Assembly: GCF_003704095.1 (NCBI RefSeq)
Contig: NW_020844184.1
Location: forward strand, 1 to 64,000
Source: Pocillopora damicornis
Lineage: Eukaryota
Direction of reading: 5' to 3'
DNA length: 64,000 bases
A model generated the notes under the pieces. It was not told the DNA's origin and did not search any database. It saw nothing but the letters and a program-made list of their open reading frames with translations. Made by a program: the position numbers and the translations under genes. Positions 1-10,759 of this stretch are shown piece by piece; positions within the stretch are counted from its first letter, which is position 1; the number at the start of each line of letters is the position of its first letter.

Positions 1-330
1 AAAGACCCTTCATTAAGAAAGAATGCCCAATTTGATTGGTTTACAAAACACATTTAAGGGTCGTCTCAGCCAAGATATGTTAATTACGATAGACAAATGT
101 TTTCAAAAGAAGACACCCACCACTACAGATAATTCATTTCAAGTAAAGAACACGCATCGTAATTAAAGGGGTACAAATATGCTTTGATACCTAAAGTAAG
201 ATGTAAAAAACATGCTCTAAGGTCTCTTCGTTACTTCGCCGCTGTAAGGACTTGGAATTCGCTACCGGAGACGATACGCGCTATAGCCGGCACAAGAGAA
301 ATTTAAAACTGGATTCCAGACACGCAATTT
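1..330 (+). mobile_element. 3' remnant of an L2/CR1-type LINE
   Basis: Manual translation of ~190-290 gives PKVRCKKHALRSLRYFAAVRTWNSLPETIR, which matches the RSF...WNSLP C-terminal motif of CR1/L2 ORF2. Confidence 0.6.
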
Positions 331-418
331 ACATGTAAATTATGAGGTAATCATATTACTTATTAGAGTTTTATATCTTTATTCGTGGAATAAACCCTTC
401 CCCCGAGGGGGCAATGAA

Positions 419-959
419 TTATCGGCCAAGTATCAGTGAAGTATCGGTCAAGTGTCGGTCAAGTATTGGTGAAGTACCGGTGAAGTATCGGTCATGTCTC
501 GGTCAAGTATCGGTCGTGAATCGGTCAAGTATCGGTCAAGTGTCGGTCAAGTATCGGTCAAGTATCGGTCAAGTGTCGGTCATGTATCGGTCATGTATCG
601 GTCATGTATCGGTCAAGTATCGGTCGTGAATCGGTCAAGTATCGGTCATGTATCGGTCAAGTATCGGTCATGTATCGGTCAAGTATCGGTCAAGTATCGG
701 TCATGTATCGGTCAAGTATCGGTCATGTATCGGTCAAGTATCGGTCATGTATCGGTCGAGTATCGATGGTTTAAGACTATATCGGTCGACTGTCGGCCGA
801 TACATCGGACGACTATCGACCGATAGTCGGTCGACAGTCGCCCGATAGTCGGTCGATTGTCGACCGATCGTCGACCGATAGTCGACCGATAGTCGACCGA
901 TATATCAGGCGACAGTCGACCGATATGTCGACCGAGTCCACCTATAGTACACATGATCC
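419..959. repeat. 11-bp tandem array (TATCGGTCAAG/TATCGGTCATG) followed by an inverted 11-bp array (GTCGACCGATA)
   Basis: About 30 units are directly visible at 419-770. The array at ~810-935 is the reverse complement of a related unit (TATCGGTCGAC). Confidence 0.9.
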
Positions 960-1119
960 GGGATTACTTCTAAGAGTTGTTTCATAACGAAAACCATTTT
1001 TCAAGTAGCTCAGAGCTGAGGGTGTAAAAACGACCCCATGCTTTAGGCCTCTCATAAACAAACAAATTTTAAAGCACATTATAAAATGGCTTAAAGAGAT
1101 ATTATGTATGTACAGTATA

Positions 1120-1912
1120 ATGACTTTCATTGAAACGGTATATAATAATAATGATCTTAACATTGAATTAATTGCATATGTAGATGATAAACAGAATATA
1201 TGGTTTAAGGGTAAATAAGTGACTAAGATATTAGGTTATGTAGACACAGGTCAAGCTATCATAAAACATGTGGATCATGGGGACCGGAGAGTAAAACCCC
1301 TGAAAACAACGGGAAATGGCAGGAGACCTTTTTTTTAAATGAAAGTGGTTTTTACTCCCTTCTATTATCAAGTAAATTAGAATCAGCTAAGGAGTTCCAA
1401 CATAAGGTTACTAAGTAAAGTACTTCCATCTATCAAAAAGTATGGTCATTATAAGTTATTTGATAATTAAATAAGATGTTAAAAGTGGAAACAGAGACTA
1501 ATCTCCATTACAAGGTGGTTCAATATATCAGAAAGTATGATGCAAATGCCATACTAATGGCAGAATTGGGTGAAAATCCAAATACCGTGTATAAGAGGAT
1601 AGACTCTTGGAGAAAAGGATATCAAAAAGGTGCACCAGATTTGATAATAGCAAATAATCACCAGCCCTTTGTGTGGAGTTCAAATCACCAAGTAATGATT
1701 ATACAATATCAGTTGGGCAAATGAAGATGAAAATAGAGTATGAAGAAAATCAGTATAAACTCATTATTGAAAATGATTATGATGAGATCATCAGAGAAGT
1801 CATTGATCATATGTAGGGTGTGAAAATCAGATGTAGACATTGTATTATTAATTTGATATCAAAGGAGTCTCTGATGGTGCGTTTGATGGAGTTCCATAAA
1901 ATTATCACCTGA
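1120..1912 (+). pseudogene. Viral Bro-N domain + VRR-NUC-like (PD-(D/E)XK) nuclease, disrupted
   Basis: ATG at 1120: MTFIETVY...IWFKGK*VTKILGYVDTGQAIIKHVD...FLNESGFYSLLLSSKLESAKEFQHKVT..VLPSIKKYGHY is a classic Bro-N pattern. It continues into ORF 1476-1724 (...SWRKGYQKGAPDLIIANNH, GxPDL nuclease motif). In-frame TAA at 1216 and several frameshifts. Confidence 0.8.
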
Positions 1913-2039
1913 AAATATATAACTATACACAGTTTTTATCCATGAAACCACCATGTAAAGGGACATTTCAATAATATATTTTTGACTTTAAGAAAACACA
2001 TTTTCTATTATTTTTATTACAGAAGATGAACGTTGATGA

Positions 2040-5000
2040 AATGATATTGTCTGGAGCTGGGAAAAAATATGCCATATGCAAACCTGTTTGAAAGAAGAAT
2101 AAACAACATTATGGGTAAGAGAAAGAAAGCATCTATTCTTGTTGATGTACAGACAGCAACAATGTTTGATAACACAGAAAAGGATGGTTTATAAACAGGA
2201 TGATTATGATATGCTAAACAAAAAGACTATAGAGAGTAAAATCGTTGATACAGGTATCAGACAGAAGACATGGTCCTTTCGCAGATGAATTACCAAATCC
2301 TATTGAGGATAATATGTACAAGTTTCTTATGTACGCTTTTTTGAAGAACAAATTTACTATGCTTTTAGGAGATTATATTGATAGTTAGGTGGTATTGTCA
2401 TTTCAGAAGATAAGAAACAGTTTGCTAAGCATAGTATGGGTGCATTGAGGTTGGAGAGTTATTCATTGAGAGATCAGAAGAAGATTAAATCACATGGTGA
2501 TAATACTCTTGTTTTTTATTATGTTTGGAATCAAGTAAAAGGTTAGAGAGGTTTTAAGAGTTACAATTATAACAAACAAAAATATGAAATATGTAGTTAT
2601 GTGTTAAATGCATCAAGAGTAACCACTGAAGGGCTTGTTTATTGGGTCAGAGAATGCCATGGTCATGTATCTCTTCATGCATTTGATAGTACTTACAAGA
2701 AGCTCCTTACATTTACCAATGCCAGAATTAGCATCTCTCTGGTATATATTGTGAAGGGTCATCATTGTTTCCCTATTAGTGATTACAATTTGAAGATTGC
2801 TGCAACAAAGGCCAATCAGGGGGGTTCTAGTGATCTATTAGAGCATATGTCTGATAATTTGATAAATTACATAAGAAGAATAAATTTGCTGTATTGCCAA
2901 AGAAGTAAGAATGGCTGATGCTGTTATTGAGTAAGTCAAGAAATCATACTATTATTTGGAGTATTTACATTGCAACAATAATAACTATTTGGATGGGTTA
3001 ATGAGTTCCCAGAAGCTGAGGCCAAGAAGATAGCGAATAGTTTTATCAGTGATCTTGGGAGGAGGTATAACGAGATCAACCATGGTTTTATATGTACTGA
3101 ATATGATAGCGGAATGTGTTGTTGGACATCTGCCATGAATGTTAAGAGAAACCTTACCACTGATCACTGTAATAGCTTATACATAATAAGAGAGCAGAAG
3201 GTAGAGAAATCATTTGATAACAACACCAGTATAAACCGTTTTGTGGTATCAGAAGCAAACTGAAATGTTTGCAGCTCATTGATTGTTGCTATGGCTAGGA
3301 CAGCGTGTTGTATGGTTACAATACCGATGGTATTTATATCATGAAAAGTGAGAAGAGATTCAAGAATAAGATGCCCTTTAAATTTAGCACAAAGCAGATT
3401 GGCAATGCTTATGAGACCAATTTCAAGCCGACATACTTTTGAGATGCATTACAGAGAAAATATGTACTTTGATGACTATGAAGTAAGATTGAGAAAAGGA
3501 TATNNNNNNNNNNNNNNNNNNNNNNNNNNNNNNNNNNNNNNNNNNNNNNNNNNNNNNNNNNNNNNNNNNNNNNNNNNNNNNNNNNNNNNNNNNNNNNNNN
3601 NNNGAACACGGCATAAAGTGGGGGCGAACTCGATAGGGGGCGAACGCGGTGCAATTCAGTAGAGAATGTTAGAAATAGATTGATATTCTTTGGTTATGAC
3701 AAAGAACAATTAAATAGTATGTGTTTTACATTTGATAGTTACTTCTGTGAATGGTTGGATAAAGACTGTACATAGAAAAACCTTTAGAGAAAAGGTATAT
3801 TCATTGAAGAATTTAGTATGGTACCAAACAAATGGATGACCAAGATTTACAAAGCCTTTACTATGTTCAACAATAAGGTATACTTATTTGGAGATTACAA
3901 TCAATGTGAACCCGTTGAAACTGGTAGTCAAGTGCATTACAATTATCAGTATTCTATTACCATCAATCACATGTGCAGCAAAACAAAGACACCACGATAC
4001 ATTGAAAGTACTAGTAGGTATGATACAGAGACCAATGATTTGTTAAAAGTATTCTTCGATACTGGTAGAATATCTACTTACTTTGAACCGGCGGGTAACT
4101 TCAATAAAAATATCTGTTTAGTGAATTCTGCCAGAATAAGGGTTAATACCAAATGTTATAATTAACCGATTCGTGGACAACAAGAAATATGCAACCACCG
4201 AATTCAAGTATTATGGTTAGACTGAGAAATATAAGGTATGTGTTGGTTCTCCAATCATTGCAACAAAAAATATTAAAGACTAGAAGATATTCAATACCAT
4301 AGAATTTATTATTAAAGACATATAATTTAATGATGAAAGGTTTGATCAAACTCTAGTTTTCAGCAAAGAGGAAAAGGTTAATGGTGCTTCTTTCATCAAT
4401 AAAGAAGTAAAGGTAAATAATGAATGGTTTACCATGGAGAGTTAGCAGAATACTTCATCCGAAGTTTCTGTGAAACAGTGTACAAGTATCAGGGTGCAGA
4501 TATTGATGAGAACTATAATATCTACGATGTTCATCGTATGCATAAAAAAAAACAATTAAGAAGTTTGAGTACATTCATATGAACTTTAAAGAGGTCAAAA
4601 ATAGGTATTTCATTAGAGTGCAGCCCAGGTTGGAGCTATTAAAAAGTAAGTTTAGTAGTATGTTTAAAAATACTAAGATCTACATTATTATGTTCGATGA
4701 TGGAAGAGTATATCTGGGTTTAACTTTTGTAGAACTTAAGATGAGGTTAAAGTGGCATCTATCCAACAAGAAGAGCCAAGTGTATAACGACAAGTGTACT
4801 AGTCGTTTCAGATCCATTTTCTGATAAGAAATCACTTGAGAATGTAGAGAGTTTTTATAACAATGAGTATGTTACTAAATACAAGAATAAACTGATAAAC
4901 GTAAGATCCAATCCATTAAAGAAGAGAGAGAAGATGCAGTATAATGTTACAGTAGAGAATAACCAGCAATTAATAGGGAGAGAGAGTAGGATTACTGGAC

Positions 5001-5181
5001 AAAAGAGTTGTAATCAAGGACAACAGCGATAAATCATTTCTGTCTATTGATACAAAGATGGGTGGTAAGAGATATTACAAGAAAACCAGATCCACAGAAA
5101 ACACTAGAAAAGGAGGCAGTAGCCAATATAACAAAGGAGAAACAAAAGATTATTGAAGACCTGACTATTAATTTTGATTGA
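2040..5181 (+). pseudogene. Divergent family-B DNA polymerase - SF1 (PIF1/RecD-like) helicase - GIY-YIG gene of a Polinton-like virus, disrupted
   Basis: PolB motif B-like KKIANSFISDLG (3024-3059) and motif C-like YGYNTDGIYI (3311-3340). Helicase Walker B-like IFIEEFSMV (~3797-3823), motif III LFGDYNQCEPV (~3883-3915) and motif V-like FCETVYKYQGADI (~4466-4504). GIY-YIG-like KIYIIMFDDGRVYLGLT..ELKMRLKWH in ORF 4579-4824. Many stops and frameshifts. Walker A would fall in or near the N gap. The start is approximate. Confidence 0.7.
3604..3657. mobile_element. Terminus of a small DNA-transposon-type repeat inserted in the viral gene
   Basis: GGGGGCGAACTCGATAGGGGGCGAA next to the gap. The same motif recurs at ~33576-33601. 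Confidence 0.5.
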
Positions 5182-5267
5182 ATATCATCTTATATCATAT
5201 TATTATAATTATTTATGTATGTAAGGTATACATCATATACTATTTTTTAATAATCATACTTCTTAAC

Positions 5268-5706
5268 CAACCCTCCTGTATGGCTCAGAATGTTGGCGCT
5301 TAACGGAGAAGGATCTATCAAAACTCTCCACTTTTCACACCAAAAGCCTTCGGCGTATTTTACGCATCTTTTGGCCTAATGTCATTTCCAACAAAGATCT
5401 TTTTGAACGGTTTGGAACCGAATCAATGGCTACCATCCTGATGAGGAGACGCTGGAGGTGGATTGGCCATGTCACCCGCCAAGAAGCTTCCATTGCAAAA
5501 ACTGCTATGCATTGGACGCCAGAAGGGAAACGCAAGCGGGGTCGCCCCAAGATCACATGGCGACGGACAGTTGAGAAGGAAATAAAGGAGATGGGGAAGA
5601 CCTGGGAGGGAATCAAGTTCATGGCAAGGGATCGCCAGATGTGGAGGGAACACGTTGCTGCCCTACATGCCTGTTAGGCGTAAAGGGCATGAAGAAGAAG
5701 AAGAAG
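5268..5706 (+). mobile_element. 5'-truncated RTE-clade LINE with (GAA)n tail and target-site duplication
   Basis: TLLYGSECWRLTEKD...RRRWRWIGHVTR...WTPEGKRKRGRPKITWRR. GAA tail at ~5691-5706. Flanked by ATACTTCTTAAC (5256-5267) and ATACTTCCTAAC (5707-5718). Confidence 0.9.
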
Positions 5707-6079
5707 ATACTTCCTAACTATTTATAACAACCAATACTCTTTACTATTTTATAAAACTGTTTCTGTACCCATTTACATAACTATGCTTTTATGGCTATAT
5801 TTTAATACCTATTCTTTACTAATATATTATAATATCCTAATATTGTCATATAATAATAATACATTAGAAAATAAGCTATCAGAGAAAAAATTTCTAACTT
5901 TTCTAGATGAATACCGTAAAATAAAAAGTAAGAAGAGGTACTACATGCACTGTGGAATGACAAAAAATGGCTGTATTGCCTTTCCATAATGTAGCGTGAG
6001 ATTTTGGCATGAAAGTGCATGTAGTCTAGCCGCTTGTTTGTCTTCTTTTAACTAGTTTATGTACTTTATGGGAACAAGT

Positions 6080-7045
6080 GAGGTCTGGGCTAATGTCTGC
6101 GTACAAAGGAAGGTGATGCGCTTCTCAAGCCTCTCCCTTCCAGGTAAAGTGGTAGCCACATGTTTATCTGCTATGCAGTAGAGAATTCCATGAGCTCTAC
6201 CTGGGTCTCTAAACATGCATTCAATATCCAGCAGCTTTGGTTAAGCTACGGAATAGATGACACACTCCCTGGTGGGAGATCTTCGAGAAAAGAGACAGCT
6301 AAGGAGTAAACCCAAATAGAGATCGAATGCTGGAGCCTCTGAGGCAGTTTGGTGGCAAACTTTGTCATAGTCTAAAAGTTCCTGCGATGTAATTGGTGCT
6401 AAGCACTATCAGCCTTTTTTTGTTCACTTGGGTTCACCAGTTGCGTGGTGTTGAATGGCCAACAAGTGATCCTCCTTATTACCCTACCCTGGCTTGCGCC
6501 GTAGAGGAGTCACTCCAACTTTGCTTCAAAGCGTGGAAAAAAATGGGAAGCAGCAGTCTACAAGTTATAGGCCATCGCTCGATTTGCATAGAGCTAGGCC
6601 TCAGGGATTGCTTCCGTCGATGGGAGGGATTTTCGCATCTCAGTAAACACGTACTTCCCACCTCAAGCTGCGCAGCTCCCAGCCGGTAAAATGCTGTTTC
6701 ACCATGGTTTGCCTTCCTGACCGACAAGCAGACCGCAACACCCACACCAGGCAGGAAAAAAAACAAAAACAAGCAACAAATAGAGAGCAGCTCTTAAACT
6801 GGGATGCTGGAATATCTGCACGGTGATAACAGGACTTGAAGAACTTCAGAACATCAGTGACGCAATAAGTCCGCAGTTATTTTTGACGAGCTACTAAGAC
6901 GCAGGCAGACATTACCATCTCTACAAGAAACGTGTCTAGCTGACCCAGGATCATTGAAGGAGAAAGACTGTACTTTCTACCCGCATGGTAAGAGTTTTAA
7001 GGATTGCAGAAAGTACGGAGTTGGGTTTGCTGTCAGGAACACCTT
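6080..7045 (+). mobile_element. 5' part of an RTE-clade LINE (UTR and N-terminus of the APE endonuclease), degraded
   Basis: ~6790-7045 reads LKLGCWNICTV...LQETCLAD.GSLKEKDCTFY..GKS...YGVGFAVRNTL. The 5' boundary is approximate. Confidence 0.7.
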
Positions 7046-7049
7046 GCCA

Positions 7050-7490
7050 GAGATCTCCATACTTCTCCAGTCAACCTTATTAGCGCCCAATTCATCTAGT
7101 TTGCGCATCTTGCCCAGTCTAACCATTTTAGTTAATTTTATTAGTCTAGCCAGTTAACCCAATTGAACCAGTTGTTATAGTTTGTATACTTAAACCGTTT
7201 CAGCTAATTTGACCGTTTTGATCACCTAAATCAATTGATGTAGTCTGTGCATTTTGTTCAGTTGAAGCTTTTTTGTGAAGTTAACCATTTTGTCCAGTTG
7301 CACCAATTCGTCTAGTTTCTGCACTTTTTCCAGTTCATCGTTTTCACTCAATTAAATCATTTTAACTAGTCAAAGCAAAGACGCTTGCTTGTGCATTTGT
7401 CCAATTAAAGCGTCTTAGCCAATTTGGCAGTGTTAAGCTGTTGCACCTATTCAGCTACTTTGTGCATTTTGTACAATTTAACTATTTAGC
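7050..7490. repeat. Degenerate 72-bp (4x18-bp) satellite, segment 1
   Basis: Recurring GTGCATTTTGTCCAGTT / AACCGTTTCAGCTAATTT / GACCATTTTAAC subunits, shared with 19160-19390 and 22490-23320. Confidence 0.7.
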
Positions 7491-7886
7491 CCGTAACTTG
7501 AGAGGTTACCTAAGCGAATGAACGGACAATTCGAACGCGCACAGTGAGTGACGAAATTTGCTTGATGAGGAGTAGTGGTTGAGTTTGCGTGCGTGTGGTT
7601 CGAACTAAAAGAAAATACAACAGGAACTAATCTAGAAAAAATGCGTTGCGAAATGTAACATTAACCTGCTGACTAAAATTGAACCGATCGTACGGAAAAC
7701 TGATTACGTGAACTATACCAATAATACATATAAAAGGTAAACAACATAAATGTAAAAGAAATAAAAACTTACTTTGGTCAAGCTCCTAAAGGTAGTAAAT
7801 AGCCTGTAGTGAACGATAACAAATAGCTTGTAGCGATTATCTAACAGCGACGATTAGCAGTGATGATTTAGCAGCGATAACTAGTA

Positions 7887-9195
7887 GTGACGATTGAAAT
7901 AGAATCTTTACACGTCAAATTTACGCATAAACCTATTAGTATGGCGCAAACACGTGCATGTCACGGCTCCGTTGAAACGCTTTTACTTCTCCTCTTACAA
8001 TTGCTTTGCTGTCTTGGAAGGGAATATAATGACCTTAATGTATTATCGAATTCAGAAACCGAGCAAATGAGACCAGTGTGTATGTTTCTGATATCATTCA
8101 TTGCTGCAAATCGCCGCCATCTTGTAAATAAGTGTCATACGAGGTACACCAAGTCTAGATTTCACTACTAGAGCAACAGCACCGCAAGCGTCAACTTTGA
8201 ACTGCTTCGTCTAAGTGGAGACATTAGCCCTAATCCAGGACCGGAAAGTTGCACCGTTTGTATAAAAGTGGTAGCTAAAAATCACGGGGCTGTGTGTTGC
8301 AACGAATTAAACGAATTCATATCAAGTGCGGTGGAATCTCACCAAAAGAGTTAAAGCGGTTACAGGCTTCTGAAACCGCCAGTTGGATATGTCCTCCCTG
8401 CTTGGACGAGATAAAACAACTACCTTTTGCTGACGTTAGTGAAATTGATACCAGCTACAGTTCTTGCAGTGACACCGACCAGACTCTGAATGAGAACGAA
8501 GACCACAACAACACTTGGACGAGTTTTGACACTTTAGTTAAAACTCATCGGAGAAACGTAAAGATAGGTCATATCAATGCCAACAGCATAGGCGGCTTTA
8601 AATTCCATGAGATCAAAAACTGACTTATGCGCGGAAGGTTCGAAATTAAAACATATCCTGACAGCCAGTTTGCCATTCAGGGCTTTCGTATGTGCCGATT
8701 GGATAGAAACATTTATGGTGGGGGGCTTATGATATTCGTACGAAGTGATCTTTGTTTCACTGTGACAAAAGAGCTTGGAGATCAAAATGGTATTGACACG
8801 TCAAACTTCAGGACAGAACACATCATACTGAAAGTGAAGGTAGCAAAGTCCTGGCTCACTGTTATGGTGATTTACAGGCCGCCATCTATTCCAACATCTC
8901 CATTGAAATTCGAACTGAGCAGGTTATTTGAAGTTGTTACAACTTTTTAAAACGATGTCATGAGACTTCAATAATAATCTGTTGGATCATAATAATCTGT
9001 TGGATCATAAGAACGGTGGTCACTTAAGAGATTTACTAGAAGTATACGGTCTCAAAAATTTGATTAAATCACCCACTCGCATAGGCAAGACATCGTCAAC
9101 TTTACTCGACTTGATTTTAACAAATAACACAAGAAGAATATTTTCATCGGGCGTAGTGGGTGCTGATATCAGCGATCATTCTCTAATATATACTA
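7887..9195 (+). mobile_element. L2/CR1-type LINE 5' part: hydrophobic leader, 2A-like motif, PHD finger, APE endonuclease (disrupted)
   Basis: LLRLSGDISPNPGP (8202-8243). PHD-like CTVC...CC...HIKC...WICPPC. Endonuclease motifs IGHINANS, RLDRNIYGGGLMIFV, VIYRPPS, PTRIGKTSSTLLDLILTN and ISDHSLIY. Confidence 0.85.
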
Positions 9196-10289
9196 ATTCT
9201 AAAAACCACAGCTCCGCGATTGCGATCAATTTTTTTATTGATTCTTCATTTGATGAGTTTGTTTGTTGTGGAAATATGTTTGCTGAGCAAAAATTTAGTG
9301 AAAATGTTTGTGTGAATTTTGAGTTGGTTCATGGATATAATTATGATGAAGAGTACGTTGATTATTGGCAGAATTGGCGCAAATTTAGAAAGAAGTCTGT
9401 TTATGATAGAAAATATAATTTGTTAAATCATTTGTTAAGAACTGAAAAAGAAAATTTTATTCATTTGACGCTAAACCAAATGAATAAAATTTTAAATGTG
9501 TTTAAACTTTTAGATAAAACAAAGTTTAACAAAAAAAGATTGATTAATATGAGATTTTAGGAGGGTTGAACGAACGATTCAGAGATCGCGCTAGATTCGA
9601 ATTGAATTTCCGTTTTCTACTTGTACACAAGCGTTTCAAGGTCGAGATACCCTTCACTTGAATCTTTGGATACCAGCGGCGGGTTCTACGAAACATATTT
9701 TTCTTAAGGCCGTAATCTGTTTCTTTTTCTGTTAAAGCGCCAGAGTCTCACATAAGAAGATAAGTTATGACGCTGCGCGCTCACGAAGAGAGATGTTTTA
9801 ATTTTTTCAGAGAAACTGAAACTTTCTTTGATCCACTGTTTTTACATATATAGTATGAGCGTACTTTGCCGTTGAACGATGCTTCATGTCTCCACCGTAA
9901 AGTAAATTGCTTTCTTCAAACTTTTATGGTTTTATAATAATGAAAGAATTGTTTCATGTGATGTCTATTGATACGAACATTAAAATTAAAAATTCAAAAA
10001 GAACATTGAAAAAGTATGAGCAATATTGGAAAAATGTAATTGAAAGTAAAATAAATGAAATAGGGAAAATCATTTTTTAGTTGTGAATTCCTTTTTGTAT
10101 TTCTCATCGTACGCCAGTAGGAGAGTTAACACAATGAACCAAGGCACGTCCAGATAGTGAAAGGCTTTAATCGCAACAGGGAAACTAGACTCCGAACGAG
10201 TAACAAACAATATGGCCGACGCGACGAGGAGAAAAGCCATCAAAAGGGCATGCTCAACCCAGATACCGCTGACCGGTACTGGCGGTATC

Positions 10290-10737
10290 TGTGGGCTGGA
10301 AGAGACAAGTCTATTATTATTAAATCTCACTGATTTATTTCTGTTGGGAATTTGCTTTGGTCGTATTCTATGCCTCTCAAATATAATCTTACTTGGGTTA
10401 ATACTTTTGCATAAGATGTGAAAGCAAATCGAGACATTTCTACCTTTCTTTTAAAGTTTTTGGTTTCTGCATAGGCTTTTAAGACCATTCCTGATGTTGT
10501 TATTGATTCAAGTATAACAGGATTTGCTGTCAAACCACCCGCTAATATTCCTCCACAAAAAAGAGTGGCTGATCCAATGGTGCAGCAAAGATCAAGATAT
10601 TTGTAGTATCTAAATGTTTTTCTGTGCGTCTATTCTTGTTTGCGATAATGATGATACAGACTATCAAATTTTTCTTTTATTTGTGGATCTAATTTGGGAT
10701 CGATGTGATTGAAATTGAATAATGACTTCTTTTGCAT
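10290..10737 (-). pseudogene. Small viral membrane protein with a hydrophobic hairpin
   Basis: MQKKSLFNFNHIDPKL...KQE*THRKTFRYYKYLDLCCTIGSATLFCGGILAGGLTANPVILESITTSGMVLKAYAETKNFKRKVEMSRFAFTSYAKVL. In frame with ORF 10327-10533 across one stop. Confidence 0.55.
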
Positions 10738-10759
10738 GTATTGTTCATATTATTTTTTC

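Follow-up and report, generated by a model that had tools for sequence, protein, structure and literature searches.

The first 64,000 nucleotides of contig NW_020844184.1 of the coral Pocillopora damicornis (hereafter the window) contain, at 2040-5181 of the forward strand, the dead remains of one replication gene of a known kind, in which a family B DNA polymerase of the protein-primed type (pPolB), a superfamily 1 (SF1) helicase (S1H) and a GIY-YIG nuclease are fused into one protein, as in the element Tlr1. We consider it highly probable that it served replication in a Maverick/Polinton virus, in which a Tlr1-type fusion, predicted to copy the linear viral DNA from its ends, had likely taken the place of the usual polymerase. 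As a single locus, it is an ordinary viral fossil.

Stops, frameshifts, one deletion of about 188 codons and one assembly gap interrupt the gene. Six-frame translation placed all motifs named in the initial annotation on the forward strand, in the order given there, over three frames: PolB motif B KKIANSFISDLG (3024-3059, frame 3), motif C YGYNTDGIYI (3311-3340, frame 2), the helicase motifs FIEEFSMV (3800-3823), GDYNQCEPV (3890-3916) and TVYKYQG (4475-4495), all in frame 2, and a GIY-YIG-like segment (4675-4719, frame 1). The initial annotation did not list the OTU protease domain that lies at about 2490-2860. The parts of the gene are:

2040..5181, + strand: fusion gene of Tlr1 type (pPolB-S1H-GIY-YIG), decayed, with no open stretch above 125 codons
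2060..2400, + strand: variable N-terminal region, matching residues 49-180 of the natural open reading frame (ORF) P0026; its position suggests a terminal protein
2490..2860, + strand: OTU-like cysteine protease domain; residues 36-148 of the structure model described below have many OTU protease matches, the best at a middling Z of 5.6
2875..3015, + strand: start of a vestigial exonuclease-like subdomain, up to the deletion junction; model residues 178-249 align within the N-terminal part of phi29 polymerase
3000..3500, + strand: polymerase fingers and palm with motif B and motif C (YNTDG), from P0026 mapping and fold comparison of the model
3504..3603, no strand: assembly gap of 100 N, the expected Walker A site of the helicase
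3656..4570, + strand: Pif1/RecD-like SF1B helicase, motifs II-V (Pfam AAA_30, E 4.5e-5; Foldseek Pif1, E 4.5e-9)
4675..4915, + strand: GIY-YIG nuclease domain in two frames (Pfam GIY-YIG, E 1.6e-7 in the relative P0037; Atlas 0.91)
4980..5181, + strand: conserved C-terminal domain, possibly DNA-binding, matching P0026 residues 1210-1273

In tblastn, residues 49-1273 of P0026 (1,274 aa) lie collinearly on window 2075-5175, with 927 residues covered; the top segment scored 191 bits, and shuffled controls (n=50) reached at most 23.9. P0026 residues 397-584 have no counterpart in the window, and the junction of this deletion lies at about 3000-3015. The deletion took out motif A and the distal pre-palm region. 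It is not a family trait, since the sister copies C2798, C4107 and C4301 of the same genome retain all or most of the segment. The initial annotation had placed the loss of both exonuclease and motif A near 3000; this holds for motif A, but intact relatives are already without catalytic exonuclease motifs, so that the loss of proofreading preceded the window deletion. The absence of Walker A may be an assembly effect, because its site falls in the gap. In the OTU domain of the window copy, the catalytic Cys position is not conserved and the His motif is kept.

Intact relatives show what the gene once encoded. A search with the longest window fragment brought up 97 candidates, of which 50 were homologues; these reach 1,333 aa and about 60% identity. 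The natural relatives each consist of one ORF of 1,230-1,333 aa, and our set of natural proteins includes 39 of at least 900 aa and 24 of at least 1,200 aa, which bears out the proposal of one continuous polymerase-helicase-GIY-YIG gene. Of the cluster members, two are named to species (Montipora capricornis and Porites evermanni), and many of the full-length ones are located on megabase contigs. The family profile matched 3,073 proteins at E ≤0.001 and 580 at 1e-30. Folds, Pfam and alignments together gave the domain order: variable N-terminus, OTU protease, phi29-like palm with vestigial exonuclease, Pif1-like SF1 helicase and GIY-YIG.

The palm had been proposed from motifs, and a structure model agrees with the proposal. 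We modelled a natural 590-residue stretch upstream of the helicase (pLDDT 91, pTM 0.88; 66 of 111 initially aligned sequences). Its top fold match was phi29 polymerase (E 1e-8; Z 16.0, rmsd 4.2, 350 residues aligned), with RNA-primed PolBs far below at Z ≤7.9 in a comparison of whole models. The best named viral match was the mavirus pPolB (E 1.2e-10), and an exonuclease-like remnant of about 70 residues is visible and aligns to phi29. Sequence searches gave no polymerase: Pfam recognised PolB in none of the 10 close or 30 distant homologues, and the polymerase was absent from solved-structure searches, both among four matches (0/4) and among the best 60 of 255. The palm assignment rests on the structure, the motifs and an Atlas lead (0.91). 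The helicase is Pif1-like also by family profile (PDB Pif1, E 1e-28). Among the close homologues, Pfam detected GIY-YIG in 1 of 10, and among the distant ones in 14 of 30. An earlier model from 30 close sequences (pLDDT 54) resolved only the helicase and GIY-YIG parts, and the whole-protein search with it listed no fold match for GIY-YIG and the C-terminal part.

Sister copies connect the gene to a Maverick backbone. The genome holds 42 family matches on nine contigs, all fragmentary; four copies that we compared are 76-88% identical in the helicase, and the insertions are therefore old. As reference we used a canonical Maverick with frame breaks on C2735 (31800-45300; L048, L049). Pfam identified its rve integrase with chromodomain, PLA2-like gene and A32 ATPase, and it also has a stand-alone pPolB. 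Its capsid is 61% identical to a coral adintovirus hexon and its protease has a weak adenain match (E 0.017); Pfam gave no name for its capsid, penton or protease, and the penton label is our assumption. C4301 has the same order (capsid, protease, PLA2-like gene, integrase) with the fusion gene in the pPolB slot, and its capsid fragment is 59% identical to adintovirus-type capsids. C4107 carries, in order, an integrase 73% identical to that of C2735, BRO-VRR and the fusion gene. Fusion-type elements have the fusion gene in place of a stand-alone pPolB with exonuclease and a DTD motif C. The integrase-polymerase slot also holds variable small genes, namely HNH-NUMOD, DUF5754, zinc-finger/AT-hook and BRO-VRR (L027 111-1357, L028 1-664, L031 729-980, L049 5839-6024), of which the zinc-finger gene is common to canonical and fusion-type elements. 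Scans of viral contigs with a helicase fragment, alignment A1 and a penton-like fragment found no relatives.

The initial annotation saw no integrase in the window, and indeed neither an RVE integrase nor a major capsid protein had a match within the 64 kb. C4107 and C4301, in contrast, carry RVE integrases that match the C2735 integrase, beside the fusion gene, which argues against the suggestion that GIY-YIG is the integration enzyme. We regard it as very improbable that the gene belonged to a transpoviron-like replicon, without an integrase or without a capsid, whose GIY-YIG domain nicks DNA for integration. Besides the genes missing from the window, this view could draw on several copies being short units flanked by terminal inverted repeats (TIRs), such as C4107 (about 5.8 kb) and C2498 (about 4.6 kb), and on none of the eight A32 ATPase matches lying on a contig with the fusion gene. 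However, the short copies differ in the part of the Maverick that they keep: C4107 has the integrase, C2798 and C2498 have tail genes, and in C4301 the stretch from capsid to integrase remains; deletion derivatives would show such a pattern. Moreover, the cnidarian elements published with a corresponding set of domains measure about 19 kb in most cases, and most of their group has a capsid gene (PMC13215967).

We assessed conservation in 88 homologues, comprising 85 of the best 150 of the 3,073 profile matches (1,100-1,600 aa) and three close proteins, mostly 20-30% identical. All 88 have the two OTU residues (Cys and His), the polymerase residues Asp in motif A, Lys in motif B and the second Asp in motif C, and the helicase residues Lys in Walker A, Gln in motif III and Arg in motif VI; the full set of five GIY-YIG core residues was present in 80/88, and the sites expected to hold exonuclease acids vary freely. 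A separate count of natural proteins gave motif B Lys in 39/39. Among natural ORFs, dN/dS was 0.09-0.11 for OTU (3 pairs), 0.08-0.15 for the palm (6 pairs), 0.05-0.13 for the helicase (10/13 pairs) and 0.06-0.19 for GIY-YIG (6 pairs); three near-identical helicase pairs gave 0.22-0.43 from very few changes. The intact proteins are likely active, since the catalytic residues of all four domains are conserved at dN/dS of about 0.1, and the GIY-YIG domain is likely an active nuclease. L024 and L025 are near-identical in the helicase (dS 0.006) and divergent in the palm (dS 0.275), a contrast that reflects intragenic recombination or an assembly chimera.

Several points weigh against our explanation. 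The gene order was derived from several broken copies, with capsid, protease and PLA2-like pieces in C4301 and the ATPase in a second element of the window, and no single copy among those compared has the whole element with the fusion gene. No target-site duplication is readable, the terminal bases being eroded in copies with two ends; a 6-bp duplication is a Maverick/Polinton feature. The profile that selected the 88 homologues contained the GIY-YIG domain, which biases the set toward proteins with it, and dS is often >1, near saturation. In the polymerase, the first Asp of motif C is replaced, by Asn in 61/88 homologues, and the phi29 alignment ends at chain residue 499 of 571, so the thumb seems absent. 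With the unconserved exonuclease motifs, these last points would fit a catalytically dead, structural palm with a helicase that brings in host polymerases, as was argued for Tlr1-like helicases in 2016 (PMC5499653). We think this improbable: the motif A, B and C residues above are invariant in proteins of such low identity, palm dN/dS equals that of the helicase, and active PolBs with the same missing Asp are listed in PMC11161782. The invariant residues and low dN/dS back the 2024 prediction in that paper that Tlr1-type palms are active, and the intact coral ORFs offer substrates for assays.

Taken together, and with PMC11161782 and protein-primed replication in general as guides, we propose that the Maverick/Polinton fusion protein would have worked as follows. 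The N-terminal region would prime synthesis at the TIR ends, and the OTU protease would cut this primer region free. The palm would polymerise without proofreading behind the Pif1-like helicase, which would unwind the duplex ahead of it. The GIY-YIG nuclease may cut or resolve replication and recombination intermediates, while the separate RVE integrase would perform integration and the capsid module packaging. The window copy would have been inactivated later by mutation, deletion and retrotransposon insertion. Among the possible GIY-YIG roles, processing of such intermediates is the most likely, although we put it at a little short of an even chance.

Appreciably less likely, in our judgement, GIY-YIG is a homing nuclease that cut rival Mavericks near the polymerase gene and so drove replacement of the resident pPolB; integration or a passenger role shares what remains. 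The genome does hold related backbones with unrelated polymerases: next to the 73% identity of the C4107 and C2735 integrases, the fusion polymerase and the canonical pPolB have no profile match (E 0.61). The two being families without profile similarity, the gene was swapped rather than fused in place, and a recent origin by fusion of the genome's own canonical pPolB is rejected on the empty profile comparisons; for a putative terminal-protein domain at the N-terminus, too, the profile comparison with the canonical pPolB gave no match. Moreover, a stub of the canonical pPolB C-terminus (37 codons, 73-76% identical) lies about 105 nt past the stop of the fusion gene in L023 (1423-1533) and L025 (2384-2494). 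In L024, the first 82 nt past the stop are as in these two loci, and a different gene follows. The stub occurs in 2/7 loci with downstream sequence, and because both are 99.7% identical, it counts as a single event; a search of the window and of the compared copies of this genome found none, and ordinary recombination also accounts for it. The conservation of the GIY-YIG catalytic set in 80/88 homologues is deeper than a passenger would show and argues against a decaying one. Homing nucleases usually decay after fixation, yet this set is kept. In nematode Polintons, on the other side, a nuclease-bearing pPolB2 displaced pPolB1 (PMC10748475), and terminal nuclease domains are read as invading homing endonucleases in PMC11161782.

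The conserved GIY-YIG domain and the stub junction hint at nuclease-driven swapping of replication genes. An endonuclease VII domain occurs in full-length relatives of the C2735 pPolB (P0285), so that a nuclease is found on either type of polymerase. An extended version, in which the fusion gene is a self-spreading cassette whose GIY-YIG cuts co-resident canonical Mavericks, installs the polymerase-helicase gene at the site of their polymerase and leaves a stub of the one displaced, seems unlikely to us. If true, coral genomes would record a nuclease-driven takeover of animal Mavericks by a replicase of protist-virus type. The swap junction provides a way to test the nuclease as driver of the replication-module exchanges reported in Mavericks.

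Of the element with the fusion gene, the right end is preserved (963-6025), and it is followed by the left half of a second element (9210-16018), as indicated by shared ends. The features around the gene are:

963..1100, + strand: left edge of the preserved element, homologous to the stretch directly downstream of the C4107 RVE integrase
1105..1860, + strand: decayed gene with BRO-N and VRR-NUC-like parts, upstream of the fusion gene (two frames match Pfam Bro-N, at E 3.8e-7 and 1.7e-6)
5267..5690, + strand: inserted 3' fragment of a presumably LINE-like retrotransposon between gene and TIR, without Pfam match
5907..6025, + strand: right TIR ending ...CATGTAGT, aligning with the ends of L026, L027 and L029 and the reversed left end of C4107
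9210..16018, no strand assigned: second decayed Maverick, left half, same orientation, 3.2 kb past the right TIR, with a small ORF (+), a SLATT-like gene (-) and tail-fibre-like genes (-)
14065-14553, - strand: A32 ATPase of the second Maverick
15256-16018, + strand: penton-like gene of the second Maverick

At the left edge, window 963-1520 is 66% identical to L010 7733-8327 (blastn; the C4107 integrase ends at 73549), and the integrase, capsid module and left TIR are missing left of 963. The VRR_NUC match within 1105..1860 is weak (E 0.064, below cut-off), and the same genes are present in C4107. At the right end, three metagenome loci end in a common sequence that lies between a few hundred and about 900 nt past the stop; the window has this end at 6025, and C4107 carries it inverted at both ends. 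No TIR pair was found among the best 25 (longest) of 100 inverted-repeat pairs in window 1-20000. Most copies end in 5'-ACTAC...GTAGT-3' (window 6025; right ends of L026, L027 and L029; C4107 72154), unlike the 5'-AG start known from Polintons. We take the SLATT-like and penton-like labels of the second Maverick as assumed. Its tail genes are nearer to those of the fusion-gene copies C2498 and C2798 (E 9e-39 and 2e-20) than to those of canonical C2735 (E 1e-11).

At 420-935, a tandem array of 11-bp units and, behind it, a related array in inverted orientation adjoin the left edge of the element. Behind the fusion gene, a LINE-like 5' fragment occurs both in the window (6280-7140) and in C3226 (L014 6927-7831), with 78% identity; these two copies are also the closest helicase pair (88% identical), possibly owing to an old segmental duplication. 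A DUF3504 and phage-integrase-type fragment at 17657-18384 was considered as an integrase of tyrosine-recombinase type and rejected, as it lies beyond the element end and was not seen beside sister copies; it is probably, we assume, a Crypton-like host transposon.

Proteins of this type have a published history, which we compare here as far as the available text of each source goes. The palm-SF1 fusion was described in 2016, with GIY-YIG in Tlr1 (PMC5499653). In 2024, the terminal protein and viral OTU (vOTU) domains were added, the palm was predicted active, and the nucleases were treated as invaders (PMC11161782); the "inactivated" label, which the initial annotation still used for the transpoviron fusions, was withdrawn there. 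The mention of polymerase-helicase fusions in nematode Polintons in the initial annotation finds no counterpart in PMC10748475, in the available text of which the word "helicase" has 0 occurrences. Degraded S1H-replicase contigs in corals and jellyfish were noted in 2021 (PMC8502044), and a preprint reports that group 2 pPolB is often replaced by SF1 or SF3 helicase-polymerase fusions (10.64898/2026.06.19.733378). In 2026, 58/65 complete elements of pMVRE group 3 were reported from corals and a box jellyfish, mostly about 19 kb with TIRs; the domains beside the polymerase were capsid (52), GIY-YIG (47), chromodomain (45), RecD (42), PLA2 (34), A32 (32) and Bro-N (16), and a truncated pPolB fused to an SF1 helicase was noted (PMC13215967). 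With the Tlr1 architecture known and complete cnidarian elements with a matching domain set catalogued, the system is not under-described, contrary to what the initial annotation had supposed. We found no analysis of GIY-YIG conservation or of swap junctions in coral elements in the text available to us, and further parts of these papers or bioRxiv supplements may hold one.

The coral protein shares with Tlr1-like pPolB-S1H proteins the order vOTU, palm, SF1 helicase and GIY-YIG (the last as in Tlr1), a length of 1,200-1,400 aa, the absence of exonuclease motifs, and a palm that keeps motifs A and B and lacks the first Asp of motif C; the Cys and His signatures of the OTU domain resemble, by eye, those given for Tlr1 in a paper supplement. 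It differs in its exonuclease-like remnant of about 70 residues in the model and in its animal Maverick backbone, which keeps a maturation protease and a PLA2-like gene. Tlr1 is described without a protease and transpovirons without all virion genes, whereas sister copies of the coral gene link capsid, protease and tail genes to it. With group 2 Maverick-Polintons (alpha-adintoviruses), the coral elements share the PLA2-type virion module, RVE integrase, adenain-like protease and TIRs (PMC8502044), but canonical members of that group have a stand-alone pPolB with exonuclease. The mavirus pPolB is likewise a vOTU-palm polymerase with reduced exonuclease, but in mavirus the helicase, of SF3 type, is encoded by a gene of its own, and there is no fusion with an SF1 helicase (PMC11161782). 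The OmPLV helicase-pPolB also joins polymerase and SF1 helicase in one protein, in an element with a BRO-N-VRR-NUC gene, but its helicase is N-terminal, its exonuclease is complete, and its origin is independent according to PMC12721341. In contrast to the picture of 2021, in which such genes were known only as degraded (PMC8502044), full-length ORFs now lie on megabase contigs. The elements of pMVRE group 3 agree in cnidarian hosts, element size and domain set, and their genome maps may show the exact layout (PMC13215967); the window copy is decayed and partial.

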